A stretch of 40,549 nt of DNA from Candidatus Moraniibacteriota bacterium (GTDB lineage Bacteria; Patescibacteriota; Minisyncoccia; Moranbacterales; UBA2206). Below, piece after piece: positions 2,019 to 27,113 of this stretch. A model generated the notes under the pieces. It saw only the letters and a list, made by a program, of their open reading frames with translations. It was not told the origin of the DNA and searched no databases. Position 1 is the stretch's first letter. Each line of letters opens with the position of its first letter. Where the stretch lies: positions 1 to 40,549 of the forward strand of contig JBAXPY010000002.1 of NCBI GenBank assembly GCA_037132035.1, in the 5' to 3' direction. The position numbers were made by a program, and so were the translations under genes.

Positions 2019-2024
2019 CAACAA

Positions 2025-2070
2025 GGACTCTTGAGAGGTGAATTTTTCCCTCTCACGAGTCCTTTTTTTT
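2025..2070 (+). terminator. rho-independent terminator
   Basis: GGACTCTTGAGAGG (2025-2038) pairs with CCTCTCACGAGTCC (2049-2062), giving 13 bp with one mismatch. T8 follows at 2063-2070. Confidence 0.7.
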
Positions 2071-2278
2071 AAGTTCCACCGATTATCAACTATCATTTTG
2101 GCATATTTTCTTACAATGAACTTCACTATAAAACAAAAAAACTATCTCCAAATAGCTAGTCTTTTTTTATTTTATATACAAAAAAGTTGAAAAAAAATCA
2201 TGGAACCTGGGAGAGACTAGTTTATAGTCTCTCGCAGTTGTCCAAGTCGATTACCAACAATGAAACGGCCCTGAAAAA

Positions 2279-2530: not shown

Positions 2531-2555
2531 ATATATTATCGTGAGATCACTGAAT

Positions 2556-2584
2556 TTGACTAATCCTCAATCATCGTCTATAGT
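2556..2584 (+). promoter_or_regulatory. sigma70-type promoter of the rpsF-ssb-rpsR operon
   Basis: TTGACT (2556-2561), 17 nt spacer, TATAGT (2579-2584). This implies a leader of about 160 nt before rpsF. Confidence 0.55.
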
Positions 2585-2750
2585 AGTGAAACAATCTAGA
2601 AAGCCCCGAAGTTCTCTCGCCTGGCCAATCGGCTAGGATAAGAGCACAAAAATTCCGCACAGGGGCGATTCTGGGGCGGTTTTTAATTTGTTAATCACTA
2701 AAGTTGAGAGAGTTGGAGATTTCTATTTCCCACTTTTCCAATTACACAAT

Positions 2751-3254
2751 ATGCGTTACGAACTATTCTATCTCGTCGGCGTTTCCAAAGAACTCGACTT
2801 GGATAAGATCAAAACCGATGTGGACGAAATTGTCACTAGCCACTCGGGAGTTTTTGAAGAAAAAGCCACTCAGGAGAAAAGGAAGATGGCTTATAAGATC
2901 AAAAAGGACACTCATGGTATCTATATCGCCAAACGCTTTTCCATGGAAGAGCCAGCAAATGTTCCGGAAATTATCACAAAACTCAACATCCATCCTGGGG
3001 TTTTAAGATTCATCATCAGCGACGCTTCAGGACTCCCTGAACTAAAGACAAAAGAGGAGCGAATTGAGCAAGAAGAAAAAAGAGGTGAGGTGGAAAAAAT
3101 GCGCCAAGAGAAAAAGGACGCAGAAGAGCTCGAAAAAAATCCACCAAAAAAAGAGGCGGTTGCAGTAGCACCAAAAACTGAAGCTGAGAAAACTCAAAAA
3201 GCTGAAGATGCTCAGGCGTTGGATAAAAAATTAGAAGAGATCTTGAATATCTAG
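2751..3254 (+). CDS. rpsF: 30S ribosomal protein S6 with a long K/E-rich C-terminal tail
   Basis: MRYELFYLVGVS...KRKMAYKIKKDTHGIYI is a typical S6 N-terminus. I start at ATG 2751 rather than the track's upstream alternative start (2688). The rpsF-ssb-rpsR synteny supports the call. Confidence 0.85.
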   Translation: MRYELFYLVGVSKELDLDKIKTDVDEIVTSHSGVFEEKATQEKRKMAYKIKKDTHGIYIAKRFSMEEPANVPEIITKLNIHPGVLRFIISDASGLPELKTKEERIEQEEKRGEVEKMRQEKKDAEELEKNPPKKEAVAVAPKTEAEKTQKAEDAQALDKKLEEILNI

Positions 3255-3336
3255 GTTAATTTTAATCTTCAATAATTATTAGCCGCTCTGCTATGTCCGC
3301 TAATTTAATTAGCGAGCAGGCGGTAAAAATAAAATT

Positions 3337-3819
3337 ATGAATATCAACAAGGTAATTCTCGTCGGAAGACTCACGAGAGATCCTGAGGTCAGAACCACCA
3401 CTTCAGGACAAACTGTCACCTCTGTCTCAATTGCTACAAATCGATTTTGGAAAGACAAAAACGGACAAAAGCAAGACCAAACAGAATTTCACAATGTTGT
3501 GCTCTGGGGAAAGCTTGGTGAAATTGCCGGTCAATATCTAGCCAAGGGACAAGAGGCTTACTTTGAAGGAAGATTAACTACACGAAAATATACTGGAAAA
3601 GACGGCATTGAAAGACGAACCACTGAAATTGTTGCAGAAAATATGCAACTTGGATCACGCGCTGGTCAAGGCGGGTCACCTGCAACCGGAAGCTATGACA
3701 AGCCCGCTGCCGCACCTGCTCAAAACCAAGCCCCACAAACATCTCCAGCCGATGAAATTCCAACAATCAATCTTGATGAAGAAGAGGATGAAGTTAGAAT
3801 TGAAGACGTTCCATTTTAG
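3337..3819 (+). CDS. ssb: single-stranded DNA-binding protein
   Basis: MNINKVILVGRLTRDPEVRTT...EFHNVVLWGKLGE is an OB fold. It is followed by a Gly/Pro/Gln-rich linker and an acidic tip ending in DVPF. Confidence 0.9.
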   Translation: MNINKVILVGRLTRDPEVRTTTSGQTVTSVSIATNRFWKDKNGQKQDQTEFHNVVLWGKLGEIAGQYLAKGQEAYFEGRLTTRKYTGKDGIERRTTEIVAENMQLGSRAGQGGSPATGSYDKPAAAPAQNQAPQTSPADEIPTINLDEEEDEVRIEDVPF

Positions 3820-3853
3820 TTATTAAATAATTATAAGTTTTTAAATTTAAAGT

Positions 3854-4096
3854 ATGTACAATAATCGCAACAGCAATGAAATTAGCACGCCGGAAAAAAA
3901 GCTCTGTCATTTCTGCCAAAATAGAATCGAGAAGATTGATTTTAAAGATGCTTATTTCATCAGACGTTTCATGAATTCTCAGGGAAAAATCTATCCACCA
4001 AAGCGACATGGAACTTGTGCTAAACACCAAAGAATTCTCACAAATGCTATCAAAAAAGCCCGAATCATGGCACTTGTGCCTTTCGTAGCGAGATAG
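3854..4096 (+). CDS. rpsR: 30S ribosomal protein S18
   Basis: CHFCQNRIEKIDFKDAYFIRRFMNSQGKIYPPKRHGTCAKHQRILTNAIKKARIMALVPF is the S18 signature. Confidence 0.9.
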   Translation: MYNNRNSNEISTPEKKLCHFCQNRIEKIDFKDAYFIRRFMNSQGKIYPPKRHGTCAKHQRILTNAIKKARIMALVPFVAR

Positions 4097-4123
4097 GTCT
4101 TAATCAAAAAATAAAAAATATTT

Positions 4124-4681
4124 ATGATTGGAATTTCAGATATCAAAGCCGGAAAAAATATTATTCTCAATGGCATGCCGTTTGCTGTGCTTTATCATGA
4201 GCAGTCAAAAACTGGTCGAGCTGGATCAGTTCTTCGTACTCGTCTCAAAAATTTGACTACTGGCGCAGTTTTGGAAAAAACATTTCAGGGAGCTGAGCAT
4301 GTGGAAGAGGCTCAAATCACCAAATCAAAAGCTCAATTTCTCTATAAGGAAAATACGGATTATTGCTTTATGGATAATGAATCCTATGAGCAATTTTCTC
4401 TTTCCACTGAAACGCTTGGGAATAATGTGGATTATCTGACTGAGGGAACAGAAGTATTGTTTCTAAACTTCGATGGCAATGCGATCAACATTGAACTGCC
4501 AGTCAAGATGAAATTGAAAGTGACCGAAGCACCGCCAGGCATCAAAGGCAACACCGTTTCCACGGGTGGAAAAATGGTAACGCTAGAAACAGGTAAGAAA
4601 ATCTCCACTCCCCTTTTTGTGGAAGCCGGAGATGAAATTATCGTCAACACAGAAAAGGGTGAATATGTCAGTCGAGCATAA
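4124..4681 (+). CDS. efp: elongation factor P (Arg at the loop tip)
   Basis: Full-length similarity to EF-P (…GKMVTLETGKKISTPLFVEAGDEIIVNTEKGEYVSRA). The loop reads SKTGRAGS, with R32 at the position of E. coli K34. Confidence 0.9.
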   Translation: MIGISDIKAGKNIILNGMPFAVLYHEQSKTGRAGSVLRTRLKNLTTGAVLEKTFQGAEHVEEAQITKSKAQFLYKENTDYCFMDNESYEQFSLSTETLGNNVDYLTEGTEVLFLNFDGNAINIELPVKMKLKVTEAPPGIKGNTVSTGGKMVTLETGKKISTPLFVEAGDEIIVNTEKGEYVSRA

Positions 4682-5283: not shown

Positions 5284-5711
5284 GGGGATGCCTGGTTTCG
5301 ACAGGTTGTACGTTTAAAATATGCAAGCCGAGCTCTTATAGCTGCTCGTAAAACCGCTATTAAAGTTATAAGTGCAAACTTACTAACAAAAGCAAAAACT
5401 GCGATTGCTAACGCTTTCACAGTCAACTTTGCTACCGCTCTTGCCTAATACTAGTCTTTACTAGTTAGGGCATAAGCCATCGAATTTATTTTCGCCCAAG
5501 GGGTAAATTTCGGTGTCATATTATTGGGCTAGCTTATGTTCCTTTTCTTGGCGTTCATCTGCGAAACAATAGCCGAGAATAGATTGAAAAGGTTTTGTTC
5601 GCCTTTCACTTTTCGATCGACCCCGCCTTGGCGGGGAAATAAGGCGGAATAAGCTTGTAGTATATTTTGGATGAATAATTTTGGACGCGAGTTCAACTCT
5701 CGCCATCTCCA
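5284..5711 (+). ncRNA. ssrA: tmRNA (ssrA), CCA not encoded
   Basis: The 5' end is GGGGATGCCTGGTTTCGACAGG. The 3' end is GGACGCGAGTTCAACTCTCGCCATCTCCA. The acceptor stem GGGGAUG/CAUCUCC has a G3:U pair. The tag ORF runs 5374-5445 (GCA AAC ...), encodes ANLLTKAKTAIANAFTVNFATALA and stops at TAA 5446. Confidence 0.9.
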
Positions 5712-5786
5712 CAAATAAATTAATAATTTAAAAACAAAGCCATAAGAAGAACACCCTACAAAAGACCCGTTGTTAGAAAAGGGCCA

Positions 5787-13617: not shown

Positions 13618-14439
13618 TTAAGAATTTACCTTTTTGTAATACAGCGCCACGTCCGCTATCCATTTGCGCACGCCTGCAGGATCATGCCCTGCGCAACTAG
13701 ACCCACACTTCCAGACAACCAGTTTTTCTGCTGTATTAATTTTTTTGTCCAATAGCTCTTTAATCCTTTCACCTACTACTAGGATTGCTTGTTCTGGAGA
13801 GTCAAAACAGCTATAACCAGAAGCGGTTTGATTATATGTCCCCCGATAACCCCAATAATTGAAACAATCATTCCCGCCTTTTTTTGGTGAGTGTTCACCC
13901 CAATCACTTTCTTTTTTGGCAATCGCAATCAGATAAGCTGCTGTTTCACTATCACACTTCACCAAGAAGGGAACCATTTTTTCCAGTGGGCTCCCTGCAA
14001 CTAATTCTTTGTATTTCAACTCTAAGCTACCTAGCGGTGCGCTTTCCGCAGCCGCTTTCTTTTTCTTTGCATCCCTCTCTTGGAGTTCCTTTTTCTCAGT
14101 TTTCCGAATTTGGTCAACGCCAGCTTTAACCTTCTCCATAGGATCAAACTTGAAAAGTTTTACTCTCGTTAAACTCGCTTGAATATCCCCCCCCAAAAAA
14201 GTAGTCTCCGCATTATCACTAAAAGAAACAGCTGTTAAGCTATTTTCTCCAAAATAGACTGAAAAAAACAGCACCAAGCATAGCACGGGCAATATTTTTG
14301 ACGATATATTTAGTTTTCCGATTCCTGTCTTACTCGCAATTTCCTTTTGCGGGCTCCCCACTTGGCGGCTATTCCGCTTTTGACAGAGTAGCGAGAAAAA
14401 CATCAGTTTTTCTCGCAATTTCGGCAGTTCTTCACTCAT
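13618..14439 (-). CDS. TM-anchored protein with Cys-rich lysozyme/glucosaminidase-like C-terminal domain (paralog A)
   Basis: TM helix ILPVLCLVLFFSVYF. The C-terminal domain reads AAYLIAIAKKESDWGEHSP...DCFNYWGYRG...CFDSPEQA...VVWKCGSSC...KWIADV. It is about 50% identical to the C-terminus of 27361-28452. Confidence 0.6.
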   Translation of the reverse strand: MSEELPKLREKLMFFSLLCQKRNSRQVGSPQKEIASKTGIGKLNISSKILPVLCLVLFFSVYFGENSLTAVSFSDNAETTFLGGDIQASLTRVKLFKFDPMEKVKAGVDQIRKTEKKELQERDAKKKKAAAESAPLGSLELKYKELVAGSPLEKMVPFLVKCDSETAAYLIAIAKKESDWGEHSPKKGGNDCFNYWGYRGTYNQTASGYSCFDSPEQAILVVGERIKELLDKKINTAEKLVVWKCGSSCAGHDPAGVRKWIADVALYYKKVNS

Positions 14440-14570: not shown

Positions 14571-17500
14571 CTATTTCTCTACACCGATCACCCAGTAATC
14601 AAAGGCGATGTCAAACTGCGCTGGCTTATCCAACTTTATCTTGAAACCAACATTATCAATTTTATCTGAAAGCACCCAATTCACCGGACTCGATCCAACT
14701 GGTGTAACAATAATCTTGGAGTCATACATCACTTTCTCATTTTTCACCAAGACCTCTTGCTGTCCAACTCGGATGATTACTGACCCCACATTATTTTTCA
14801 AAGGATCGGCGTTCTCACTAACCACATAATCCTCGGCTTTGACCTTCTTAGCTTTCACTTCCGTTGCCTCCAAATTACCAAGTCCCAAATTGACATTACC
14901 GCTAACATCTTTGTAAATCAGATTATTCATATTGAGCGCTAAGGCGAAATCAATCACAGCCTGACTTTGAGTCTGGACCAGGTCCAATTGATCCTGCAGC
15001 TTTTTCAGATTTTGGCTCAACTCACTCACACTGTCATCCATCTTTTTATTCGTCAGCGCCTGAATCTCCAACTTACCAAAAATATCTTTAAGTGCAGTTC
15101 CTTGATCAATATTATTTAAAAGATCCAAGTTTCCAGTATCAATTGCTTGAGCTAAAGGAACGTAGTTTGCCTTGGTTTCAACGCGAATATTTTTGAATTT
15201 AAGACTAGTGTTAGCTGATAGTTTAAAATAGGCTCTAAAATAATTCAAATGCTGCCAATCAATCTCTCCAGTCTTTGCGCCATCTGCGAGCGGTAATCTG
15301 ACCTGATTCCAACCGGAAAGGAAGAAGGGATGACTAGATCTGATCCATTCAATCTCTTTTTGATCTTGGATATTGCCAAGTTCAGTGTGAAAATCTTCGA
15401 GACTGGCGCTATCTTCAAGAAAAACATCATACACAAGATAGGATTGGTTTTGATCTTTGCCCGAGAGATCCAGCTGATTGGCGCTACCTAGATTAATAGC
15501 CAGCTCTTGAAAATTTTCAGGAGCATTATACTTAGCAGAAAATTGATTATTTTCAATCAATTGGTCAGTCAGAGATGAAGAAAGTTCACTGTTTGCATCT
15601 TTGAATTGATAGAACGGAAGCTCTTGGACTGGTTGACTATTTTGAGAGAGCAAGGCGTTGGCTGAACTTAGCTTGGTGCTGAGAAGATTAATCTGAGAGC
15701 CACTTGCCACGAGGTTAGTTTGGATGGAATTGATTTTTTGATTTGCAAGAGTGGTCTGATTTTGATTGTCTGTTTTGAGGAGAGCAAGTGCTTGATTCAG
15801 TTTTTGAATTTCATTATCTTGGCTATTATTTGAGTTTTGAAGAGCACTGGCAAGGATGGACAAGCTGGAGAGTTGAGTTTGCTGAGCTTTGACACCTTCA
15901 ATAAGAAGAGCGGAGAGATTGCCATAAGCGATACCATAACCATCCTTTTCGTTACCCACTACCACTTCGGGTAGGACTTTCAGCGTATCTTGAGCAATGA
16001 GACCAATTTGACGATCCGCGCCGGGATTAGACTTCCAATTGAAATAGACTCCACTGAGAGATTTGATTTTATCCAAGGGGTTAGTCACGTCCATGATGTT
16101 GGTTTTTAGTCTGGCGTCAGAAGAATGCGCCCAACCGCTAGTCGTGTACGTTCCCGTAGTGGAACCATTGTAGACGGCTAGTTTTTGGGTTGGGGTGGTG
16201 GTACCGATGCCAAGATTACCGGAAATATTAATCCGCATCGCTTCAGCCATAGCATTTGGAGCTGAACTCTTAGTGGATTGTAGAGCTACGCCTAGCTGAG
16301 ATTTAATATAACCACCACCAACATTTGTCCAAGACATATTTACGGTTGACGCTCCCGCTTTATAGGAAGTTGCTACTCCGTTACCATTATTTGCTCCGAC
16401 ATAGTTTATGAGAGTCTGACCAGAACCAACAGTAGGAGTTCCAATATCCTCAGCGCCCCCCACTACATCAATAACCATGTCATTTGTTGCTGCCGAAACA
16501 TTGGTTGAAATGCTACTCCCCCAGTTGTCAGCGACGCCACTCGTGATTCCGAAAGAATTGGTTTGATCAACGTTATAAAAGGTTTCGGCCACGGCTGACA
16601 TCTGACCGTTAGTTGAAGCGCTATGAATTGTCACATTATGCGTTCCAGTGTGAAGCTCTGAATCCTTCAGGTACCACAGCTGAACCAGCGCTGCGCTCCC
16701 TTTGCTATCTAGCAAGTGCATATCAACTCCGTCATATCGTACATACTCAATAGGGATACGCACGCTAGTAGCCACAATCAAAATTTTATTTGATTTTCCC
16801 GCATCAACGGCGTGAGAAATGGTAACAAGAACTCCCGAACCGTTGTAGCCATACGCGGAGCCAACACTGCTATTATCCAATGCAATTGGTTGCCATGACA
16901 ATCCTGGTGACGTTCTGAAAATCAAACTGCCAGAATTTCCCGTTCCTGTTCCAGCGGGCGTGTCAAGAAACATATTGGATCCAGAAATATTCGTTCCACT
17001 AGCCGCCGGGCCCTTGATATAAACATCACTTGGAGTCGCTGTGCCATTGCCAGAGCCGAAAAGAATATTTGAAGTAGCGACGTGCAGTCCAGCTTGCGGA
17101 CTAGTCGTGCCAATGCCAACATTTCCCAAAGTATAATAGATATCATTTCCTGTAGTTACCCACGAACTGCTACCTATACCACTGTCCGTCCAAGCTGTTT
17201 TGCAAACGCCAGCAATACACAACCCGGCAGCGGCGTTAATTTGTCCCAACACACCAGATCCTCTCACATCGACCTTGTAGGTTGGATTATTCGTGCCAAT
17301 ACCGATGTTGCCAGCCTTTAAATACATCGTATTGGCAACAGCTCCAGTTTCTTCACTAGTCAGAGCAGCGACTGAATTTTGGGTTAGGATAAAATTAGCA
17401 CCAGGAGTTAATCCAGTAATTCCCGTTAGAGCTTCAGCTCCTGATCCTCTGTTGATGGCATGCGCGGTTGTCCCGATATACATGGTTTGTCCGATAGGTG

Positions 17501-20500
17501 CGTAGTTGGCAATGGTCGCATAAGCTCCAGTGCCCAGTGCCCCACTAATAGTCACATTATCTTGAACTGTTAAAGTCTTGCCAGCGGCAATATTCAATGC
17601 ATTAGTTCCATTATTAGTGATTGCTAAACCATTGAATAATGGAGAAATGATAGATGTTCCAAAGTAGCCCGTTCTTGGTCTGGTGGCACCATTAGCTCCA
17701 ATATCCAAAGTGTTATCAGTAAAAAGCAAATTACCAGTCAAAGTTCCACCTCCAATAGGAAGATAGGCGCCAGAAGCTGTAAAAGCAGCACTACCTAGTG
17801 TCCCCCCGCCAGTTGGAATGGTTAAAGTAGTCCCAGCTGCTGGCCAAGTCAGTACTCCTGCCCCGCCGTTATTAGTGAAAGTCGTTGTAAAAGTAGCATT
17901 CGTGACTGTCCCAGCATTGCCCGTAACTGATCCGCTAATTGCATTAGTAACGGTAATATCAGTTGCCCAAAGTTTAGCTAGACGATTAGTGGTATCTCCA
18001 ATAGTTTGCGGAGTAGTTTGGCTTGTGAGTACTGCTCCGGCAAGAGAGGTAAGATAACCCATTCCGGTCCAAGGTGTGCCAGTTACATAGGTAGAGTTGT
18101 CATAAGAAATAGTAGTGCCGGCTATCTTAACAAAGCCTGTGCCATTGAGAGCATCTTGTTTACTAGTGGCTAGTCCGGAGTAAAGCGAGTTAGCGGAGTT
18201 GTCACCCGTATTTGTTCCTGAAACTGAAGCATCGAGAGGAACTGTGAGAGTTTTTGAGGTTGTTCCTCCGGCAATAGTGAAACCATTGGTAGCTGCGGTG
18301 AAGGTGAGAGCGTTGTATGTTCCGCCAGTGACATTGCCGGTTGAGTTGATTTGGAATTGAGAAGTGAAGCCAACGGAGAGCAGCGCAGTTGGGGAAGAAG
18401 TGCCAATTCCAACATTCCCTCCATCTTTAATCACAAATGCAGAAGCTCCAGCGTCTTTAAAATTGACGATATTGCCGGAGCCAGATTGGTTGATTGTGAG
18501 AGCATCGGAGGTTCCGTTATAGGCTGCATTAATTAAATTGCTAGAAGTGATACTACCGAGAAGATTAAGATTTCCTAATCCATTAACTTTAAATTTTTGA
18601 CTACCGCCAACTGCGACACCAAGAAGTGTATTACTTACAGCGCCGACTGAGCCGGTGTTTTCATAACCATAAGACTCTCCTGTCCACGTGCCAATCAACA
18701 AATCCTTATCCCCATCATCATCTAAATCAGCAAACGCTGGACGAGGTTTCACGGACCCGCCAACATTAGGAGTATCCCAAGAAGCCTTACGCGACCAGAT
18801 CAGAGAAAAGACGGTGCCAGTATTTTCATAGGCGTAAGATATTCCACCATATTCCCCGATTATTACGTCATAATCACCATCGCCATCCAGATCAGCTAAG
18901 GCAGGGCTAACGCCGTAACCAATATCTGGAGTATTCCAACCTGAGTTGGCCGTCCATGTTGGCAATAGAGTTGTGCCAGTGTTCCGATAGCCATAGGACA
19001 CACCGCTATCTGAACCAACCAACACATCTATCTTTCCGTCATTATCCAAATCAGCAAAAACGGGAGTGGCTGAATCTCCTATGTCAGGCAAATTCCAACC
19101 CGCCCTCGCCGTCCAAATTGGCGAAGAAATTGTTCCGGTATTTTCATAGGCGTAAGATACGCCATTATATCCACCAACCATCAAGTCATAGTCCCCATCG
19201 CCATCCAGATCAGCAAGGGCTGGCTTAACATAAGTAGAGGCACAGCCAATTATATTCCAATCTGATTTTGCAGAAAAACTTGGCGAAGAAATTATGCCAG
19301 TATTTTCATATCCATAAATGTTACTGCCAACACTAATCAGCAAATCAAAGTCACCATCATGGTCTAAATCAGCAAAAGCGGGAGAGCCCATATTACCACC
19401 AGGACTAGGCATATTCCAAGCCGATTTCGCCGTCCAACTCACAATAGGATTAGAACTATACGAAGCCGGATTAATATATAGCGAGCCATTAGAAACACCT
19501 CCTCCCATTGGAATACTTGAAAAAGTTCCCAGTCCCGCCACTTCAAATTTAGAAGTTGGCGCTGTTGTTCCGATTCCGATGTTTCCAGTATTACTACTAT
19601 ATATATCATTACCTGATGTGGTCCAAACGCTACTGCCAATTCCTGAATCAGTCCAAGCAGTTTTACAAATTCCATTAATGCACAGTCCCCCTTCGGCGTT
19701 GATTTGTCCGGCGGCGGCGATGCCTCGGACGTCTAGTTTATAACTTGCAGTAGTCGTTCCAATACCGATATTACCTAGCCCGGAGAAAGTTAGATTATTG
19801 GAAGCAAGAGCAATGTCTGTGGCAGCGGATAACGTACCGCCTAGTTTAAACGCATTGGCAGTTAATGTTAACCCATTTGTGGCAGTGTAACTTGTGCCAG
19901 ATTGTTGATCGAGTTGATATCTGGTTCCTGCGCTCGTGGCGGTAAAATATAAATGCGACCCATCAAATTCTACTGCTCCCCCTTCAGTGGCAGAGAGCAA
20001 GGTTCCGGTTGTAAATTTAAGTGGAGCTGTTCCGGCTGTGGCGGTACCAGCTTTGATGTTGAGTAATGCAGTTGGTGAGGTTGTGCCGATACCAACAAAG
20101 CCCCCGTCTTTGATCATGAAGGCAGAAGTTCCGGCATCTTTGAAATTGACGATGTTGCCGGCACCAGATTGGTTGATTGTGAGAGCGTCAGAGGTTCCAC
20201 TGTAAATTCCATTGATTAAATTATTAGCAGTAAAACTTCCGCTAAGAGTTAATTGACCAAGCCCATTAACTCTCAATTTTTCACTACCAGCCACTGCGAC
20301 ACCAAAAACAGTATTAGTAGCAGCACCAATAGAGCCAGTATTTTCATAAACACGAGTCACATAAGGAGAATATTCCCCGACCAATAAATCAGCGTCCCCA
20401 TCACTGTCTAGGTCAGCAAGAGCAGGAGCAACCCGCCCACCACTGCTATTTGGCGCATTCCAAGATGACTTCGCTGCCCAAACCGGAGAAGAAGCTGTGC

Positions 20501-23500
20501 CAGTATTTTCATAACCATAGGATATTCCATTAGAAGCATTACCAATCAACAAGTCAAAATCGCCATCACCATCTAGGTTAGCAAAAGTTGGATGAGCACG
20601 CGAACTCACGCTAGGTGTGTTCCAACCTGCTCTTGCTGTCCAAGTTGGAGAAGAAACTGTTCCAGTGTTCTCATACGCATAAGCGATACCATCAGACCTG
20701 CCAACTAACAAATCCGTTTTCCCATCATTATTTAAATCAGCAAAAGCAGGGACAGTTTCAGTAAAAATACCTGGCCCATTCCAGCCCGCCCTCGCTGTCC
20801 AAGCCGGAGAAGAAATTGTGCCAGTATTTTCATAAGCGAGAACACCACTACTATAAGATCCGACTAGCAAATCAAAATCACCATCATGATCCAAATCGGC
20901 CAAGGCAGGAGCACTGCGACCATCACCACCCGTAGGGCCATCCCAAGCTGGTTTAGCAGCCCAGCTTGGAGAAAAAGCTGTGCCAGTATTTTCATATGCA
21001 ACTACAGTTGTACTACCAGTACCTGCCAGCATATCCAAATCGCCATCACCATCCAGATCAGCGAAAACAGCATAAACATGACCGCTAATACTAGGTAGCC
21101 ACGCCGCTTTTGTCGTCCAACTAACCATCGGCGCTGAACTATAAGCGGCTGGATTAATATAGAGTGCTCCCTGCGAAACCCCCGTTCCAGTCGGAACACT
21201 GGTAAGTGTCGCTAGTCCTGCAATCTCAAGTTTCGAAACCGGAGTGGTTGTTCCAATGCCAATGTTTCCCGTATTACTACTATATATATCATTACCATTT
21301 GTGGTCCAAACGCTACTGCCAATTCCAGAATCAGTCCAAGCTGTTTTGCAAACTCCGGCAATACATAATCCTCCGGCAGCGTTGATTTGTCCGGCTGCGC
21401 CTGAGCCTTGAACATCTAGCTTGTAACTTGGTGTAGTCGTGCCAATCCCAAGATTTCCATTAAGTGTCAATCCTGCAAAAGTTGGACTGGATGTGGTGAG
21501 AAGACTTTGATTAATAGAAACGTTTGATCCACTGATGGTTAAGGTTCTTGCAGTTGTTCCGCCAAGAAGATTGAAGCCATCAGTCGCTGAAGTTAGCGTG
21601 AGACCATTATATGCACCTCCAAAAATACTACCAACGCCATTAACTCTAAATTTTTGAGAGCCTCCCACTGCAACACCAAAAAGTGTATTACTTGCAGCAC
21701 CAACCGAACCCGTGTTTTCATAGGCATACGACACGCCATTATACTCTCCAATCAACAAATCTTTATCTCCATCATTATCTAAATCAGCCAAAGCAGGAAT
21801 AACATAAGTTCCAATATCTGATACATTCCAGCTTGTTTTTGCAGCCCAAGTTGGCGCAAGAGTTGAGCCAGTGTTTTCATAGGCATTAGTAACGCCATTA
21901 TAATTTCCAATGAGTAAATCTAAATCACCATCACCATCTAAATCAGCAGCGACTGGCAAGGCATTAGCTCCAACGCTAGGAACATTCCAGCCTGATTGCG
22001 CTATCCAAACTGGCGCAAAAGTTGTGCCAGTATTTTTATAAGCATAAGTTAAGCCACCATTTTCACCAATTAATAGATCAATATCACCATCGCCATCTAA
22101 ATCAGCAAAGGCTGGAGCACAAGATGTTCCGATAGATGGCGTATTCCAACTTGGCTCCGCTGTCCAAACTGGCGTAGAAGTAATGCTAGTATTTTTATAG
22201 GCATAAGATACGCCCACATATGAACCAATCAATAAATCCACCTTTCCATCTCCATTCAAATCAGCAAATGCAGGTTTAGCGTAAGTACCAATATCAGGAC
22301 CATTCCAAGCCGACTTAGCCGACCAACTAGGCAACAAATTTGAACCAGTATTTTCATAGGCATAAGATATACCATCCATTGCACCAATTAATAGATCCAG
22401 ATCACCATCGCCATCCAAATCAGCAAAGGCTGGAGCAGCAAGCGTTCCAATATCAGGCGTGTTCCAGACAGATCTAGCCGTCCACTGCACAATCGGATTA
22501 GAACTATACGACGCCGGATTGATATACAGCGCACCCTGCGAAACCCCCGTCCCCGCCGGAATATTTGTGAGAGTCGCTAGCCCGGCAATCTCCAATTTTG
22601 AAACAGGCGTCGTTGTTCCAATTCCAATGTTTCCCGTGTTGTTGCTATAGATATCATTGCCACTTGTCGTCCAAACACTACTGCCAATTCCAGAATCAGT
22701 CCACGCAGTTTTACAAATTCCATTAATACACAATCCCCCCTCAGCATTAATTTGTCCGGCAGCTGCGGTGCCTCGAACATCGAGTTTGTAGCTAGCAGTA
22801 GTTGTGCCTATGCCGATATTACCTAGTCCGGAGAAAGTTAAATTATTAGAAGCAAGGGCAATATCCGTAGCTCTAGTTAGTGTACCACCCAACTCAAAAG
22901 CGGTGGAATTGAGGGTGAGACCGTTCGTGGCAGTGTAGGCCGTGCCAATGGCGGTGCTCCAAACGGGATTAGCGCCAATGCCTTGCGTTTTGAGAAAAGT
23001 GCCACTCGTGCCAGCAGTCAACACGGTCCAGTTAGTGCCATTGTAATACATAACATCACCTTGAGCGGGAGTGACACTGGCCATATCAGAATGGCTCGTT
23101 GAAAAAAGTTGGTGGGCTGAGCCAGGCGCAGTCGTCACCCAAGTGAAGCCTTGTGTGGCTGAGTTGTAAGTCAGAATATTACCATTTTGAGGATTAGTGC
23201 TACTTTCCAAGAGCATGCCTTCTATGATTTTGTTATTACCAATTGAAGTGATGCCAGCATTCGTAATGGCAATGTCACCGGTCATCGCTACACCAGCGGC
23301 AATATTTGAGGCATTACCAATAAAGAGACTGCCACTCGTTAGCAAGTTAGTCATTTTTCCGTTAAATGTATTCCAATCAGTATTTGATAGTGCGCCTGTA
23401 GAGGAAGTGGAAGCCAGAACCAAAGTAAACACCTGGGAGCCATCAACGGAGAGACCGTTGGCAGTCGCGTTGATTGTTGCTGGGTTATGACCAAAAGATG

Positions 23501-26500
23501 ACGTGGATGTATCACAGACTAGTCCCGATGCGGTGGAATAAACGCAGAGCTTCGTGTCAGTCATCGTGCCTTGTTTTAGGGAAAATTCTGTACCCGCTAA
23601 TTGGAGCAAATTACTAGCGGCCGCAGCATATGTTGTACCAGTCGCTGCTTGCCAAGCTGGATTAGCCCCTGCTCCATTCGTTCGCAGGAAGTTACCACTT
23701 GTGCCTGCCGTGAGAGCAGCCCATCTTGTGCCGTTGTAGTAGATCACATCCCCTTGGGCGGGAGTGATGCTGGCCATATCGGAATGAGAGGCAGAGAATA
23801 AATTATGGGCAGTGCCGGGAGCAGTCGCCACCCAAGCAAAACCACTGGTGGCGGAGTTGTAAGAAAGGATATTGCCATTGCTGGGAGTGGTCGTGCTTTC
23901 GTTTAACATGCTTTCCGTGATCTTGTTAGCACCAATACTGGTTACCCCCCCATTGGTGATGGCAATGTCTCCGGTCATCGTGATACTTGTGGCAATATTG
24001 GAAGCGTTACCAATGAAAAGATTTCCACTAGTAAGAGCGGGTGAAAGTTTACTGTTGAAAGTTTGCCAATCGGTATTATTCAGTGCTCCTGTTGTTGAGG
24101 TGGAAGCCAGTGCCAATGCTAGCTCTTGACCGTTTAGGGTTAGGCCGTTATTCGTCGCGTTAATAGTCATCGGGCTGTGACCAACGGTGGTACTGTCTGT
24201 ATTGCAAACTAAATTAGTGCCGTCATAACTGCAAATGCGTCCAGTGGTGAGCGTGCCTTCTTTCATGGAAAACGTGGTGCCAGATAATTGCAGGAGATTG
24301 CCACTCGCAGCATATGTTGTACCAGTCGCTGCTTGCCAAGCTGGATTAGCCCCTGCTCCATTCGTTCGCAGGAAGTTACCACTTGTGCCTGCCGTGAGAG
24401 CAGCCCATCTTGTGCCGTTGTAGTAGATCACATCCCCTTGGGCGGGAGTGATGCTGGCCATATCGGAATGAGAGGCAGAGAATAAATTATGGGCAGTGCC
24501 GGGAGCAGTCGCCACCCAAGCAAAACCACTGGTGGCGGAGTTGTAAGAAAGGATATTGCCATTGCTGGGAGTGGTCGTGCTTTCGTTTAACATGCTTTCC
24601 GTGATCTTGTTAGCACCAATACTGGTTACCCCCCCATTGGTGATGGCAATGTCTCCGGTCATCGTGATACTTGTGGCAATATTGGAAGCGTTACCAATGA
24701 AAAGATTTCCACTAGTAAGAGCGGGTGAAAGTTTACTGTTGAAAGTTTGCCAATCGGTATTATTCAGTGCTCCTGTTGTTGAGGTGGAAGAGAGCACAAG
24801 AGTAAGGACTTGTGAGCCATCGACTGAAAGACCATTGGCCGTAGCGCTTACAGTAATTGGAGTGTGTCCAACGGAAGCGGAAGTGGTATTGCAAACTAGT
24901 CCACTGGTTGTGGAATAGGTGCATAGTCTTGTGTCAGTCAGTGTGCCTTCTCTCAAGGAAAAAGCACTGCCAGTTAATTGGAGGAGATTGCCACTGGCGG
25001 TGTAAGTCGTGCCAGTCGCAGCTTGCCAAGTTGGATTATTCCCTGTTCCGTTTGTTCGCAGGAGATAGCCGTTCGTGCCAGCTGCGAGCGTGGTCCAGTT
25101 TGTGCCATTGTAATAGATGAAGTCCCCTTGGGATGGAGTGATGCTGGCCATATCCAAATGACTGGAAGAAAAAAGATTGTGTGATAGTCCAGGGACAGTT
25201 GGCACCCAAGCAAAACCATTCGTCGCTGAGTTGTAGGCCAAAATATTGCCATTGGCAGGAGTATTTGTGCTTTCGCGTAACATGCTTTCGGTAATTTTAT
25301 CCGCCCCGATTGAAGTTACTCCGGCGTTGGTGGTTGTGACGTCTCCGCTCATCGCAACACCCGTGGCAATATTGGAAGCATTACCGATGAAAAGTCTGCC
25401 ACTAGTGAGAGCGGGTGAAAGTTTGCTGTTAAATGTTTGCCAGTCAGTATTACTTAGTGCTCCTGTTGTAGAAGTTGAGGCTAGGGCGATAGCTAGTTCT
25501 TGACCATTTAGAGCTAGACCATTATTCGTCGCGTTGATGGTGAGTGGGCTGTGGCCAACTGAGACACTGTCCGTATCACAGACTAGGCCACTAATGGTGG
25601 AATAGGTACAAATTCGACCGTTAGTGAGCAGCCCTTCTTTGACTGAAAAAGTGCTGCCCGCTAATTGCAGTAGCGTGCCAGATCTTGTGTAGGTCGTACC
25701 AGTCGCCACTTGCCAAGTCGGATTACTATTAGCACCGTTCGTTCGCAGAAAATTACCACTCGTGCCAGCACTGAGGGCAGTCCAGTTGGTGCCGTTGTAA
25801 TAGATAACGTCTCCTTGAGCGGGAGCGATGTTGGCTGTGTCGGAATGAGCACTAGAGAAAAGATTGTGATTGGTGCCAGCTGGAGCACTCCAGGTGCCGT
25901 CCCCTCTTAGGTATTGCGCAGTAGTACCAGCAGATACGGGAAGATTGTAGGCGCCATTAATATTAAGCGCGCTGACTCTAGTTGCGCCAGTCACTTCCAA
26001 TTTGTAGCTAGGACTAGTAGTGCCAATTCCAATGTTTGTGCCATCATTGTAAAGGACACTGCTGGCAGACCAACCCAAAGAAGTGTGATAGTTAAGTGTT
26101 TGTCCCGTTGTGCCAGTCGGGAGAGTGCCACCGCCACCGCCGAGCATCGTATTACCCCAATAAAGATTACCGCTATTGCTGTAGAGACGATTGGTGGAAG
26201 TTGTGGGCACGGAACTGTCAGCCAGATAGAGGCGGTCTTTAACATCGAGACTAGTCACGTTGATTGTATCTTTGAGCGAAATGGAAACGGAACTGCTAGT
26301 CGTGACCACATTAACATTCCCCGCCCCCAAAATGGAACCAAAAGCATAGCCGGATCCATTACCCATGAGCACCTTGCCATTTTCTGGATTAGTGGTGAGT
26401 CCGGTACCTCCTTGATTTACGGGAAGAGTACCTTGAGTATCGGTACTGAATTTAATTTTGTTAGCGGTTAGTTTTTGATTGGAGAGAGTGAGATATTTTG

Positions 26501-27113
26501 CTCCAGAAAGGGTGAGGGAATCGTTTAGTCTTGAGTCATTGCCCGTGATTAACTGTCCTGCGCCTGTGCCAATGGGAAGATTTTGGATGTCAATCTTTCC
26601 GGTGTTGTTGAGAGAGACGATGTCGCCTGACTGGGTTCCAATCTTTTTGCCATCCAAAAGGGAGGCATTGGTGGCGTTGTAGGCAAAGAGAGTGGAAGTG
26701 ATTCTTTTTCTGGGGACCAGTTCACTATCTTGATTAATCCTGATTCCTAGATAGAATTGATTGTTTTCATTATTGGTTAGGATAGGCAGCTCTTGAGTTT
26801 GCCCAAGATTGAATTTAAGAATACCATTTTTGATGGTGACGGCTTGAGTTTCTTCCCAAACTCTTCGTTCTTTATCTGCGTCAGAAGGATATCTGTCAAT
26901 TGTTGTTCTGTTTTGAGAATAGAGCGCGAAGCGTACGGTGTAATCCCCATTGATCATTTGGCCGGTTTTGTCGGTGACAAAAGCCACCCCTTCCATTTGT
27001 CTGGCGGCCTCCACTTTGAGAAAAGGGCAAAGAGTAAAAAAGACAAAACAAAACAGAAAAATGGCTACATTTTTCTTGTATTTTTTTTCACTTTTCTCTT
27101 TCGAAAATATCAT
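14571..27113 (-). CDS. giant (4180 aa) secreted/anchored tail-fibre-like repeat protein with FG-GAP/VCBS blocks and an S74 chaperone domain
   Basis: Single uninterrupted ORF. It has an N-terminal signal/anchor. Recurrent GN[IV]GIGTT[ST]P.YKL.V.G, LPVNQGGTG and YLPIGGGTLTGNL motifs appear. There are fifteen DLDGDGD.DLL[IV]G repeats. SSDARLKTNI...IGLIAQD...LPEVV is also present. Confidence 0.9.
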   Translation of the reverse strand: MIFSKEKSEKKYKKNVAIFLFCFVFFTLCPFLKVEAARQMEGVAFVTDKTGQMINGDYTVRFALYSQNRTTIDRYPSDADKERRVWEETQAVTIKNGILKFNLGQTQELPILTNNENNQFYLGIRINQDSELVPRKRITSTLFAYNATNASLLDGKKIGTQSGDIVSLNNTGKIDIQNLPIGTGAGQLITGNDSRLNDSLTLSGAKYLTLSNQKLTANKIKFSTDTQGTLPVNQGGTGLTTNPENGKVLMGNGSGYAFGSILGAGNVNVVTTSSSVSISLKDTINVTSLDVKDRLYLADSSVPTTSTNRLYSNSGNLYWGNTMLGGGGGTLPTGTTGQTLNYHTSLGWSASSVLYNDGTNIGIGTTSPSYKLEVTGATRVSALNINGAYNLPVSAGTTAQYLRGDGTWSAPAGTNHNLFSSAHSDTANIAPAQGDVIYYNGTNWTALSAGTSGNFLRTNGANSNPTWQVATGTTYTRSGTLLQLAGSTFSVKEGLLTNGRICTYSTISGLVCDTDSVSVGHSPLTINATNNGLALNGQELAIALASTSTTGALSNTDWQTFNSKLSPALTSGRLFIGNASNIATGVAMSGDVTTTNAGVTSIGADKITESMLRESTNTPANGNILAYNSATNGFAWVPTVPGLSHNLFSSSHLDMASITPSQGDFIYYNGTNWTTLAAGTNGYLLRTNGTGNNPTWQAATGTTYTASGNLLQLTGSAFSLREGTLTDTRLCTYSTTSGLVCNTTSASVGHTPITVSATANGLSVDGSQVLTLVLSSTSTTGALNNTDWQTFNSKLSPALTSGNLFIGNASNIATSITMTGDIAITNGGVTSIGANKITESMLNESTTTPSNGNILSYNSATSGFAWVATAPGTAHNLFSASHSDMASITPAQGDVIYYNGTRWAALTAGTSGNFLRTNGAGANPAWQAATGTTYAASGNLLQLSGTTFSMKEGTLTTGRICSYDGTNLVCNTDSTTVGHSPMTINATNNGLTLNGQELALALASTSTTGALNNTDWQTFNSKLSPALTSGNLFIGNASNIATSITMTGDIAITNGGVTSIGANKITESMLNESTTTPSNGNILSYNSATSGFAWVATAPGTAHNLFSASHSDMASITPAQGDVIYYNGTRWAALTAGTSGNFLRTNGAGANPAWQAATGTTYAAAASNLLQLAGTEFSLKQGTMTDTKLCVYSTASGLVCDTSTSSFGHNPATINATANGLSVDGSQVFTLVLASTSSTGALSNTDWNTFNGKMTNLLTSGSLFIGNASNIAAGVAMTGDIAITNAGITSIGNNKIIEGMLLESSTNPQNGNILTYNSATQGFTWVTTAPGSAHQLFSTSHSDMASVTPAQGDVMYYNGTNWTVLTAGTSGTFLKTQGIGANPVWSTAIGTAYTATNGLTLNSTAFELGGTLTRATDIALASNNLTFSGLGNIGIGTTTASYKLDVRGTAAAGQINAEGGLCINGICKTAWTDSGIGSSVWTTSGNDIYSNNTGNIGIGTTTPVSKLEIAGLATLTNIPAGTGVSQGALYINPASYSSNPIVQWTARSVWNTPDIGTLAAPAFADLDGDGDLDLLIGAMDGISYAYENTGSNLLPSWSAKSAWNGPDIGTYAKPAFADLNGDGKVDLLIGSYVGVSYAYKNTSITSTPVWTAEPSWNTPSIGTSCAPAFADLDGDGDIDLLIGENGGLTYAYKNTGTTFAPVWIAQSGWNVPSVGANALPVAADLDGDGDLDLLIGNYNGVTNAYENTGSTLAPTWAAKTSWNVSDIGTYVIPALADLDNDGDKDLLIGEYNGVSYAYENTGSVGAASNTLFGVAVGGSQKFRVNGVGSIFGGAYNGLTLTSATDGFNLLGGTTARTLTISGSNVSINQSLLTTSSPTFAGLTLNGNLGIGTTTPSYKLDVQGSGAAGQINAAGGLCIAGVCKTAWTDSGIGSSVWTTNGNDIYSSNTGNIGIGTTTPVSKLEIAGLATLTSVPTGTGVSQGALYINPAAYSSAPMVSWTTKAAWLPSISGHVYAVFADLDGDGDLDMLAGTGSTTVVAYENTGTAFSPSWAAKPAWDGPTGGDGRSAPALADLDHDGDFDLLVGSYSSGVLAYENTGTISSPAWTARAGWNGPGIFTETVPAFADLNNDGKTDLLVGRSDGIAYAYENTGTVSSPTWTARAGWNTPSVSSRAHPTFANLDGDGDFDLLIGNASNGISYGYENTGTASSPVWAAKSSWNAPNSSGGRVAPALADLDSDGDADLLVGEYSPYVTRVYENTGSIGAATNTVFGVAVAGSEKLRVNGLGQLTLSGSFTANNLINGIYSGTSDALTINQSGAGNIVNFKDAGTSAFMIKDGGFVGIGTTSPTALLNIKAGTATAGTAPLKFTTGTLLSATEGGAVEFDGSHLYFTATSAGTRYQLDQQSGTSYTATNGLTLTANAFKLGGTLSAATDIALASNNLTFSGLGNIGIGTTTASYKLDVRGIAAAGQINAEGGLCINGICKTAWTDSGIGSSVWTTSGNDIYSSNTGNIGIGTTAPTSKFEVAGLGTFSSIPMGGGVSNGSLYINPASYSSNPIVSWTAKSAWNMPSPGGNMGSPAFADLDHDGDFDLLISVGSNIYGYENTGIISSPSFSAKSDWNIIGCASTYVKPALADLDGDGDYDLMVGGYNGVSYAYENTGTISSPIWTARAGWNLPDIGDSATPVFADLDNDGKIDVLVGSDSGVSYGYRNTGTTLLPTWTANSGWNTPDIGYGVSPALADLDGDGDYDVIIGEYGGISYAYENTGTVFSLIWSRKASWDTPNVGGSVKPRPAFADLDDDGDKDLLIGTWTGESYGYENTGSVGAVSNTLLGVAVGGSQKFKVNGLGNLNLLGSITSSNLINAAYNGTSDALTINQSGSGNIVNFKDAGASAFVIKDGGNVGIGTSSPTALLSVGFTSQFQINSTGNVTGGTYNALTFTAATNGFTIAGGTTSKTLTVPLDASVSGTNTGDNSANSLYSGLATSKQDALNGTGFVKIAGTTISYDNSTYVTGTPWTGMGYLTSLAGAVLTSQTTPQTIGDTTNRLAKLWATDITVTNAISGSVTGNAGTVTNATFTTTFTNNGGAGVLTWPAAGTTLTIPTGGGTLGSAAFTASGAYLPIGGGTLTGNLLFTDNTLDIGANGATRPRTGYFGTSIISPLFNGLAITNNGTNALNIAAGKTLTVQDNVTISGALGTGAYATIANYAPIGQTMYIGTTAHAINRGSGAEALTGITGLTPGANFILTQNSVAALTSEETGAVANTMYLKAGNIGIGTNNPTYKVDVRGSGVLGQINAAAGLCIAGVCKTAWTDSGIGSSSWVTTGNDIYYTLGNVGIGTTSPQAGLHVATSNILFGSGNGTATPSDVYIKGPAASGTNISGSNMFLDTPAGTGTGNSGSLIFRTSPGLSWQPIALDNSSVGSAYGYNGSGVLVTISHAVDAGKSNKILIVATSVRIPIEYVRYDGVDMHLLDSKGSAALVQLWYLKDSELHTGTHNVTIHSASTNGQMSAVAETFYNVDQTNSFGITSGVADNWGSSISTNVSAATNDMVIDVVGGAEDIGTPTVGSGQTLINYVGANNGNGVATSYKAGASTVNMSWTNVGGGYIKSQLGVALQSTKSSAPNAMAEAMRINISGNLGIGTTTPTQKLAVYNGSTTGTYTTSGWAHSSDARLKTNIMDVTNPLDKIKSLSGVYFNWKSNPGADRQIGLIAQDTLKVLPEVVVGNEKDGYGIAYGNLSALLIEGVKAQQTQLSSLSILASALQNSNNSQDNEIQKLNQALALLKTDNQNQTTLANQKINSIQTNLVASGSQINLLSTKLSSANALLSQNSQPVQELPFYQFKDANSELSSSLTDQLIENNQFSAKYNAPENFQELAINLGSANQLDLSGKDQNQSYLVYDVFLEDSASLEDFHTELGNIQDQKEIEWIRSSHPFFLSGWNQVRLPLADGAKTGEIDWQHLNYFRAYFKLSANTSLKFKNIRVETKANYVPLAQAIDTGNLDLLNNIDQGTALKDIFGKLEIQALTNKKMDDSVSELSQNLKKLQDQLDLVQTQSQAVIDFALALNMNNLIYKDVSGNVNLGLGNLEATEVKAKKVKAEDYVVSENADPLKNNVGSVIIRVGQQEVLVKNEKVMYDSKIIVTPVGSSPVNWVLSDKIDNVGFKIKLDKPAQFDIAFDYWVIGVEK
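15789..16124 (-). other. peptidase S74 / endosialidase intramolecular chaperone domain (aa ~3664-3775)
   Basis: SSDARLKTNIMDVTNPLDKIKSLSGVYFNWKSNPGADRQIGLIAQDTLKVLPEVVVGNEKDGYGIAYGNLSALLIEGVKAQQ matches the PF13884 pattern (SD.R.K.NI ... G.IAQ[ED] ... PE.V ... Y..L..LLIE). Confidence 0.75.
18651..19400 (-). repeat. FG-GAP/VCBS block 3 (5 repeats)
   Basis: DLDHDGDFDLLIS, DLDGDGDYDLMVG, DLDNDGKIDVLVG, DLDGDGDYDVIIG and DLDDDGDKDLLIG. Each is followed by ..Y[AG]YENTG. Confidence 0.8.
20331..21100 (-). repeat. FG-GAP/VCBS block 2 (5 repeats)
   Basis: DLDGDGDLDMLAG, DLDHDGDFDLLVG, DLNNDGKTDLLVG, NLDGDGDFDLLIG and DLDSDGDADLLVG. Confidence 0.8.
21711..22485 (-). repeat. FG-GAP/VCBS block 1 (5 repeats)
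   Basis: DLDGDGDLDLLIG, DLNGDGKVDLLIG, DLDGDGDIDLLIG, DLDGDGDLDLLIG and DLDNDGDKDLLIG. Confidence 0.8.
22913..25873 (-). repeat. in-frame tandem array, about 4.3 copies of a 228-231-aa unit
   Basis: Units begin at conserved H416, H645, H875, H1103 and H1334 ([NSA]H[NQ]LFS..H[SL]D....[ITV][AT]P[AS]QGD.[IM]YYNGT.W). The nucleotide period is 684-693 bp. Confidence 0.9.
23622..24790 (-). repeat. 485-bp perfect direct repeat (23622-24106 = 24306-24790)
   Basis: Base-by-base comparison of the two stretches shows identity at an offset of 684 nt. Identical spurious antisense ORFs in the track confirm it. Confidence 0.9.

Follow-up and report, generated by a model that had tools for sequence, protein, structure and literature searches.

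The main finding of this study is that an intramolecular chaperone autocleavage (ICA) domain from the Peptidase_S74 family lies inside a giant bacterial surface protein and is followed there by a conserved module under purifying selection. The gene is found in a 40,549-nucleotide stretch of DNA from a Candidatus Moraniibacteriota bacterium (GenBank assembly GCA_037132035.1, contig JBAXPY010000002.1, positions 1 to 40,549; hereafter the window), where an open reading frame (ORF) of 4,180 amino acids (aa) encodes a secreted fibre-like surface protein of the Candidatus Moraniibacteriota type, located on the chromosome. An earlier note on this DNA had offered two options for the S74 domain, cleavage with release of a large second product or a non-cleaving trimerisation module. 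Because all 80 internal domains keep the catalytic dyad unchanged and a second type of autocleaving chaperone occurs at the same position in relatives, the evidence favours a cleaving domain that is predicted to release a second product of ~57 kDa. The complete proposal, in which S74 is a working autocleaving junction that gives rise to a ~370-kDa fibre chain and to a 57-kDa lectin-like chain with a function of its own, has in our judgement about an even chance of being correct. Coordinates of all features are given in Table 1.

The identity of the domain is clear. The S74 homology proposed in the earlier note holds up in the profile alignment, in which PF13884 (Peptidase_S74) matches aa 3665-3718 with an E-value of 1.5e-17 and 64 bits (gathering cut-off 22) over profile positions 1-57 of 58. 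The translation places the first residue of SSDARLK exactly where the note had it, at aa 3664 (codon at window 16124..16122), and leaves precisely the 516 residues that it had counted from the Ser-Asp on (Ser3665 to the stop, 57.1 kDa, isoelectric point 4.9). The last residue of EGVKAQQ is aa 3745 (window 15879), and the note's lower coordinate of 15789 corresponds to about aa 3775. The domain is indeed internal, since the ~400 aa said to follow it amount to ~423 residues beyond an S74 unit of ~93 residues. Ser3665 and Lys3670, the expected catalytic dyad, are both intact and align with the residues that are invariant in the family. These are the only invariant columns in an alignment of 26 diverse S74 family members, and across 80 S74 domains with the terminal domain described below on their C-terminal side (median pairwise identity 29%), only Ser3665, Lys3670 and Ala3707 are 100% conserved. 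A dyad that is among only three invariant columns at such a low identity is hard to explain without selection on catalysis. In the equivalent domain of the eukaryotic transcription factor MYRF, S587 and K592, which correspond to S911 and K916 of endoNF, are indispensable for cleavage (PMC8326128).

Comparison with solved structures points in the same direction. A profile made from the 26 family members matches S16 gp37 (6F45, E-value 1e-18) and MYRF (7DC3, 6.5e-12) in the PDB, together with the tail fibre 8JOV, T5 pb1 (8HQZ) and GA-1 gp12 (3GUD). A single-sequence PDB search of the S74 region returned only 6F45 (E-value 0.0066), the other solved ICA domains needing the family profile. The first residue of 3GUD, the released GA-1 chaperone chain, aligns with Ser3665, which is why the predicted scissile bond is placed between Ser3664 and Ser3665. 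In an AlphaFold2 monomer model, the S74 part (pLDDT, the predicted local distance difference test, 75-92) is matched by Foldseek to the MYRF ICA chain 7dc3_B with an E-value of 1.4e-3 and a template modelling (TM) score of 0.63.

What follows the S74 domain had been described as a coiled coil, a globular segment, a second coiled coil and a beta-rich end, and this four-part anatomy is confirmed by the AlphaFold2 model, which covers aa 3640-4180 and was built from a 29-sequence alignment (mean pLDDT 78). The first coiled coil (CC1) is a single helix that continues the last S74 helix without a break, has a hydrophobic periodicity of 3.55 and is predicted to form a trimeric stalk. It leads to a beta jelly roll that Foldseek matches in the PDB to carbohydrate-binding modules (CBMs) of families CBM30, CBM11, CBM8, CBM29 and CBM16 (E-values 2.6e-7 to 1e-3, TM 0.55-0.62). 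This CBM-like domain has invariant motifs (YDV..E, ELGN, GWN and YFRAYFK), and its surface motifs are invariant down to 28% overall identity. By sequence, the window protein belongs to no CBM family in Pfam, or in NCBIfam over its C-terminal 541 aa, and relatives of the domain show weak Pfam matches to galactose-binding-like and CBM families, mostly below the family cut-offs. After the second coiled coil (CC2) and a flexible linker comes a six-stranded terminal beta-sandwich, whose closest PDB neighbours, at weak scores, are the C-terminal domains of tailspikes and depolymerases from phages (E-values 0.025-0.09, root-mean-square deviation 2.1-3.6 A over 73-81 columns). In BFVD its best E-value is 3.5e-4, and many of the matches are named "K1 capsule-specific polysaccharide lyase C-terminal domain". 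It has no Pfam match, and neither PF18962 (Por_Secre_tail) nor a related family appears at E-values up to 0.1. Downstream of aa 3665 there is no transmembrane segment (highest 19-aa hydropathy 0.95), and Pfam and NCBIfam recognise no wall-anchor domain in the C-terminal product. Nothing matching the post-S74 module turned up in a tblastn search of 50,697 phage records, so a recent phage origin is not supported.

The downstream module is an integral part of the protein. A scan of GTDB genomes identified seven loci (below, L numbers denote loci and P numbers collected proteins). One of them, L004, is a syntenic ortholog in the Candidatus Moraniibacteriota metagenome-assembled genome (MAG) MFD12006_ilm_asm_bin13, with neighbours 86-95% identical to those in the window, and it carries the S74, CBM-like and terminal domains within one uninterrupted ORF. 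S74 and the downstream module also share one continuous frame in the paralogs L005, L007 and L009, and the same unbroken frame is seen in P0001 and in P0002, P0003, P0121, P0122, P0125 and the complete 759-aa P0010 (28% identity); the latter six proteins, like these four loci, come from different samples and assemblers. It is therefore very improbable that the downstream ~400 aa belong to a second gene joined to this one through a frameshift or a misassembly, the artefact that the earlier note had considered; the frame shared between ortholog, paralogs and independent proteins in practice refutes such a fusion. What speaks for an artefact is that giant repetitive genes are error-prone in assembly, with two 300-nt copies being 100% identical in this one, and that P0123 and several short proteins carry the C-terminal part alone. 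Against it, besides the uninterrupted arrangement in these loci and proteins, the model helix runs unbroken across the junction between S74 and the downstream part, P0123 is a 5'-truncated relic, and the other short proteins start inside coiled coils, as fragments would. We rejected short terminal-domain-only proteins as free-standing genes, since they begin inside coiled coils or without a start codon and look like fragments.

Purifying selection acts on the whole module. Over the 423 post-S74 codons, the ratio of nonsynonymous to synonymous substitution rates (dN/dS) is 0.08 between the window and L004 and 0.11 between the window and L003; it is 0.09-0.10 in the CBM-like domain and 0.01-0.03 in the terminal domain (0.01 against L004). 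The MAG that contains L004 has five paralogs with this C-terminal module (L004-L008), of which at least two exceed 3,200 aa. They include at least three divergent terminal-domain types, and in L006, which is related to P0142, the junction is neither S74 nor the alternative domain described below. No conserved partner gene was found beside the paralogs, whose downstream neighbours vary, only L004 sharing synteny.

The architecture is widespread. A profile search of 1.84 billion cluster representatives, combined with our own hidden Markov models (HMMs) of the modules, gathered 277 relatives. The terminal domain is present, as the last domain at the C terminus, in 124 of them, ranging from 133 to 6,169 aa. 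In 79, a coiled coil links S74 to the terminal beta-sandwich over a distance of typically 95-135 residues, and in most of these proteins the sandwich ends within 5 residues of the C terminus. The notion that S74 is always at the extreme C terminus, taken by the earlier note as established, is thus valid for phage fibres, where the domain is discarded and leaves no density in mature fibres (PMC12143355), and fails as a general rule in view of MYRF, these 79 relatives and the Bacteroidota-type proteins discussed below. Short tails are common in the wider collection: of 222 S74 proteins, 129 stop within 60 residues after the domain and 142 within 150. About 25 of the terminal-domain proteins have the CBM-like domain as an insert, and many relatives have S74, coiled coil and terminal domain without it. 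Elsewhere, in proteins of 1,056-3,075 aa that lack S74 and the terminal domain (P0150, P0177, P0180, P0182, P0198, P0206, P0224, P0231, P0234 and P0242), 6-18 copies of the CBM-like domain stand in tandem, repeating every ~165 aa, and a single copy occurs in a small secreted protein, P0157. Look-ups of the sequence clusters yielded little taxonomy other than Moraniibacteriota. We found no description in the literature of S74 in candidate phyla radiation (CPR) bacteria or in giant bacterial proteins.

The S74 domain can be replaced at its junction. Upstream of the terminal domain, the 124 proteins have S74 in 79 cases, a domain with the motif ADYAEYF in 13 and other modules in 15, the remaining 17 being too short. 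The ADYAEYF domain precedes the same coiled coil and terminal domain, and it never co-occurs with S74 among the collected relatives. It is likely to be Peptidase_G2-like, on a match that is weak and partial: PF11962 (Peptidase_G2) is the best Pfam family in 7 of 7 isolated domains tested (best E-value 1e-7), and in P0278, which is 53% identical to P0126, this "IMC autoproteolytic cleavage domain" reaches 27 bits against a gathering cut-off of 25, the scores being 22-27 bits overall and confined to profile positions 40-99 of 228. P0126 itself yielded no Peptidase_G2 for this domain in a whole-protein Pfam scan (E-values up to 0.1), in two PDB sequence searches or in NCBIfam. Since S74 and G2-like domains, both described as autocleaving, occupy one position, autocleavage may be what this position requires. 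Among the other junctions, modules that stand in the place of S74 upstream of CC1 and have no Pfam match occur in P0142 (aa ~2710-2800, starting ALSITDRTAYPKSLNQAYEAVLSMQRLPDGEY...), in P0156 and P0173 (starting HNFSLIP...AWSFYSERDK...) and in P0167 (aa ~930-985). A further variant is P0004 (532 aa, NCBI, on a 6,966-nt contig), in which the conserved signal peptide and N-terminal domain, with no shaft after them, lead straight into CC1, and from there through the CBM-like domain and CC2 to the terminal domain. The two parts meet at a shared K-I-[TN]-S motif (PRKKITS followed by IQTNL). Either this protein is a true deletion variant, or the assembly has collapsed over a giant gene.

The C-terminal module is exchanged between related genes at the S74 boundary. 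Up to aa 3664, P0121 is identical to the window protein at 453 of 454 residues, and past this point S74 retains 90% identity, CC1 and the CBM-like domain 65-67%, and the terminal domain 29%. At the DNA level, the contig of P0121 (L010) differs from the window by three mismatches in 1,441 nt (window 17502-16062, 99.8% identity), and divergence starts at window 16061, in aa 3685, beyond which identity is down to 63-82%. These alignments confine the recombination breakpoint to the interval from window 16203 (aa 3637) to about aa 3725. It most likely falls inside the S74 domain, 20-60 codons downstream of where cleavage is predicted, which would make the exchanged unit nearly the same as the predicted cleavage product. 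L004 displays the reverse pattern, with 85-87% aa identity in S74 and the downstream part and 39% in the shaft. In P0002, P0123 and P0143 the terminal domain is of the window's type (80-85% identity), and S74, where present, is 38-39% identical. P0123 (269 aa) lies at 9878-10810 of L001 (GCA_049287085.1, contig JBAQFD010000021; also in Logan SRR28062512), directly after ftsE/ftsX. In-frame CBM-like homology continues upstream of its ATG for ~40 codons, as far as a stop codon; this upstream stretch contains no start codon, there is neither shaft nor S74, and the terminal domain is 85% identical to that of the window. This 5'-truncated relic may be a pseudogene, or it may serve as a silent donor of cassettes for the exchange at the S74 boundary.

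The reading that we favour is that S74 acts as an autocleavage junction joining two trimeric modules of one Sec-exported precursor; trimerisation, the cut itself and the ligand of the C-terminal product are parts of it that we infer. After export, CC1, probably with CC2, would zip three chains into a parallel trimer, as might be expected from MYRF, in which ICA trimerisation depends mainly on a C-terminal triple coiled coil and only the trimer is cleaved (PMC8326128). The S74 domains would then fold as a trimer and template the folding of the fibre stalk directly upstream, after which the Ser3665/Lys3670 dyad would cut between Ser3664 and Ser3665, leaving a fibre chain predicted to end in ...STTGTYTTSGWAHS. 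One product would be the mature fibre, whose chains of about 3,630 aa (~370 kDa each) carry the N-terminal domain and three blocks of FG-GAP propellers. The other would be a 516-aa, 57-kDa trimeric stalk consisting of S74, coiled coil, CBM-like domain, second coiled coil, linker and tailspike-like beta-sandwich. This second product would be a selected, exchangeable and probably glycan-binding module and not a throw-away chaperone. Its role might be to hold and register the C termini of the precursor at a glycan surface during assembly and then to persist as a lectin-like stalk, a proposal that comes from the CBM-like fold and from parallels with MYRF and with relatives that end in a secretion tail.

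Several points weigh against this reading. Cleavage is a prediction throughout, and the AlphaFold2 model, being a monomer, cannot report on trimerisation or on active-site geometry. The function of the second product is the weakest link: with no membrane segment and no recognised wall anchor, the tether role is conjecture, and none of the PDB matches of the terminal sandwich reaches an E-value of 0.001. The 79:13:15 ratio of junction types is biased towards S74, as the query profile held S74 columns. The 15 terminal-domain proteins with junction modules of unknown type and no known protease activity imply that this position can do without an autocleaving domain, and in P0004 the N-terminal domain is joined straight to the C-terminal module with no S74. 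Finally, mosaic exchange of the C-terminal module, as in phage receptor-binding proteins, fits a permanently attached distal tip equally well. This last point belongs to an alternative that we consider unlikely yet serious, in which S74 is a permanent trimerisation joint, not cleaving or cleaved and still attached, the protein is anchored at its N terminus and the C-terminal module is the distal, ligand-binding tip. The N-terminal domain is conserved family-wide, like the attachment end of phage fibres, the C-terminal module is swapped by recombination between near-identical genes as phage receptor-binding tips are, a single MAG combines five paralogs with at least three terminal-domain types, CBM-like and tailspike C-terminal-like folds are typical of tips, and modules without known protease activity can stand in for S74. 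However, the catalytic residues are two of just three columns that never vary among the 80 internal S74 domains (median identity 29%), a pattern that fits poorly with this alternative, and the alternative junction of 13 relatives is again related to an autocleaving chaperone. Furthermore, all characterised cases separate the parts, phage fibres having no density for the domain (PMC12143355) and MYRF freeing its N-terminal trimer (PMC3742440; PMC8326128).

A further alternative, which seems to us improbable, accepts the cut and denies the second product a function after it: the whole 516-residue piece would be an enlarged canonical chaperone that only registers and folds the long trimer and is then degraded, the CBM-like and terminal domains adding stability or solubility. 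Disposal is the established fate of S74 in phage fibres (PMC12143355), CC1 is continuous with the S74 helix and coiled coils drive ICA trimerisation (PMC8326128), and the many relatives without a CBM-like domain make do with S74, a coiled coil and the terminal domain. However, the short tails of most S74 relatives, with 129 of 222 ending within 60 residues and 142 within 150, indicate that chaperoning does not depend on the extra 420 residues. In addition, the CBM-like domain is autonomous, forming tandem arrays elsewhere, and keeps its surface motifs invariant to 28% identity. The terminal domain has a dN/dS of 0.01-0.03 and sits behind a flexible linker, away from the folding nucleus.

Comparison with known systems highlights both similarities and differences. 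The S74 domains of phages (K1F endoNF, T5 pb1, S16 gp37 and GA-1 gp12) belong to the same family, share the Ser-x4-Lys dyad and the place after a fibre stalk, and have a terminal helix of a kind also predicted for the window domain, which in phages forms a trimeric coiled coil. The main difference is that the window domain is not C-terminal, having ~423 residues after it, and is encoded on a bacterial chromosome in a protein with a Sec signal; moreover, the downstream module was not found in phage records by tblastn. The window domain is thus a member of Peptidase S74 that stands outside the phage subclass defined by terminal position. By analogy, it would work most like MYRF, with an internal ICA domain and two predicted products. 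In MYRF, an internal ICA domain with a trimer driven by a coiled coil and Ser-Lys cleavage splits the precursor into two functional parts (PMC3742440; PMC8326128), and both proteins have a large C-terminal remainder. MYRF differs in being a eukaryotic transcription factor of the endoplasmic reticulum membrane, whose remainder contains a transmembrane helix and whose N-terminal part contains an Ndt80-like DNA-binding domain, whereas the window protein lacks a membrane segment downstream of its ICA domain, has no DNA-binding domain by Pfam and belongs to an extracellular setting.

The nearest bacterial parallel comes from the same list of matches, in the form of Bacteroidota-type proteins (P0013, P0014, P0020, P0021 and P0105) whose TTSGWAHSSDARLK junction is nearly identical to that of the window. 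In these proteins too S74 is internal, with a short coiled coil after it and then a small beta-sandwich as the very last domain. However, their end is Por_Secre_tail (PF18962), a diderm secretion signal, and they lack a CBM-like insert; the window's terminal domain belongs to a monoderm-type CPR lineage, and its likeness to the tail of the type IX secretion system (T9SS) is positional only. In the Bacteroidota-type proteins, autocleavage would detach the fibre from its sorting or anchoring tail. Such S74 architectures are in the databases, and as far as we searched they are uncharacterised. Peptidase_G2 (PF11962), known from pre-neck appendages of the phi29/GA-1 type, is represented by the G2-like domain at the place of S74 in 13 relatives and does not occur in the window protein. 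The predicted jelly roll matches the fold of type B CBMs (CBM30, CBM11, CBM29 and CBM4/16), and the predicted terminal fold matches the C-terminal sandwiches of tailspikes (Sf6, Pam1 and K64-1 S2-4), the latter below the usual PDB significance; in neither case is there membership at the sequence level.

Upstream of S74, the protein is built as a secreted fibre. Its sole hydrophobic stretch is aa 13-37 (19-aa windows with mean Kyte-Doolittle hydropathy above 1.6, starting at aa 13-19). The N-terminal domain recurs in 32 of the 277 relatives, in each of them close to the N terminus and in many cases in S74-bearing fibre proteins; it has no Pfam match and, in a scan of the N-terminal 150 aa, no NCBIfam match. 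Long repeats separate this domain from the FG-GAP blocks, which match Pfam FG-GAP_3 and FG-GAP (E-values 8.5e-49 and 3.6e-37), form a 159-nt repeat family at the DNA level and are separated by fibre segments with GIGTTTP. The 300-nt copies mentioned above (window 23622-23921 and 24306-24605) are 100% identical, with sister copies at 68-75%, and belong to a repeat family at 22929-25295 with a period of ~690 nt, in which the matching protein repeats of ~230 aa are likewise identical. Either the copies were duplicated recently or homogenised by gene conversion, or the assembly has collapsed or expanded here. A region of ~300 aa upstream of the S74 stalk (aa ~3368-3663, window ~16125-17012; PIALDNSSVGSAYGYNGSG...VALQSTKSS) has no Pfam match and is shared, at the same position, by P0009. 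The stalk segment itself is kept directly before SSDxRLK in P0006, P0007, P0009, P0013 and P0122.

The giant gene is surrounded by genes for Lgt, two Mur ligases, Ddl (D-Ala-D-Ala ligase), an L,D-transpeptidase and an EamA transporter, with HAD and alpha/beta hydrolases and a transfer-messenger RNA (tmRNA) also nearby in the window. These housekeeping neighbours, together with the synteny with L004, indicate a bacterial chromosome. The tmRNA gene (window 5284-5712, forward strand) is called as 429 nt and encodes the tag peptide ANLLTKAKTAIANAFTVNFATALA. Immediately downstream of the giant gene, a 273-aa membrane-anchored protein (window 13618-14439, reverse strand) is 86% identical and syntenic in L004, is not found next to paralogs, and shows a sub-threshold similarity to glucosaminidase domains (E-value 0.08).

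Table 1. Features of the giant ORF and its product in the window
Feature	Residues (aa)	Window positions	Strand	Basis
Giant ORF	1-4180 (4,180 aa)	14571..27113	-	ORF list and translation
N-terminal signal peptide or signal anchor	1-36	27006..27113	-	Possible (putative) cleavage site between VEA and A; sequence read directly
Conserved N-terminal domain	53-147	26673..26957	-	Iterative HMM
Three blocks of five FG-GAP repeats	~1540-1830, ~1995-2290, ~2560-2850	18564..22496	-	Pfam
Stalk segment just before the predicted cleavage site (GNLGIGTTTPTQKLAVYNGSTTGTYTTSGWAHS)	3629-3664	16122..16229	-	Conserved in relatives
Predicted scissile bond	Ser3664-Ser3665	16119-16124	-	Alignment to GA-1 chain 3GUD
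Peptidase_S74/ICA domain	3665-3757	15843..16121	-	Pfam, profile, model
Predicted catalytic serine	Ser3665	16119-16121	-	Family alignment
Predicted catalytic lysine	Lys3670	16104-16106	-	Family alignment
CC1, single 95-residue helix	3730-3824	15642..15926	-	AlphaFold2 helix H91-185
CBM-like beta jelly roll (Glob)	~3830-3980	15174..15626	-	AlphaFold2, pLDDT 93-98
CC2, second long helix	4001-4060	14934..15113	-	AlphaFold2 helix H362-421, pLDDT 65-79, periodicity 3.45
Flexible linker	4061-4108	14790-14933	-	Low confidence in AlphaFold2 model
Terminal six-stranded beta-sandwich (Term)	~4109-4176	14586..14789	-	pLDDT ~90 in two models

If correct, our reading would add a third setting for ICA/S74 domains, beside the discarded chaperone of phages and the internal switch of MYRF, namely the giant chromosomal surface fibres of ultra-small, probably episymbiotic bacteria, where S74 lies between the fibre and a conserved glycan-binding-like stalk. 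The locus stands for a family of more than 100 sequence clusters. A broader idea, which we put forward tentatively and regard as somewhat doubtful, is that Moraniibacteriota-like CPR bacteria use phage-derived S74 or G2-like domains as maturation switches. A giant precursor would thereby yield a fibre together with a trimeric lectin stalk that works separately and is exchanged as a cassette. Such a system would parallel MYRF in bacteria and outside the cell, and its unit of recombination would be approximately the unit of proteolytic release. Cleavage, if it occurs, would account for the register and folding of a trimer of ~4,000 residues outside the cell, would reveal a second mature product that annotation otherwise misses, and would provide, through S3665A and K3670A, a handle on surface-fibre biogenesis in unculturable organisms. 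Modular exchange at the S74 boundary, for its part, illustrates how these bacteria diversify their surface proteins.

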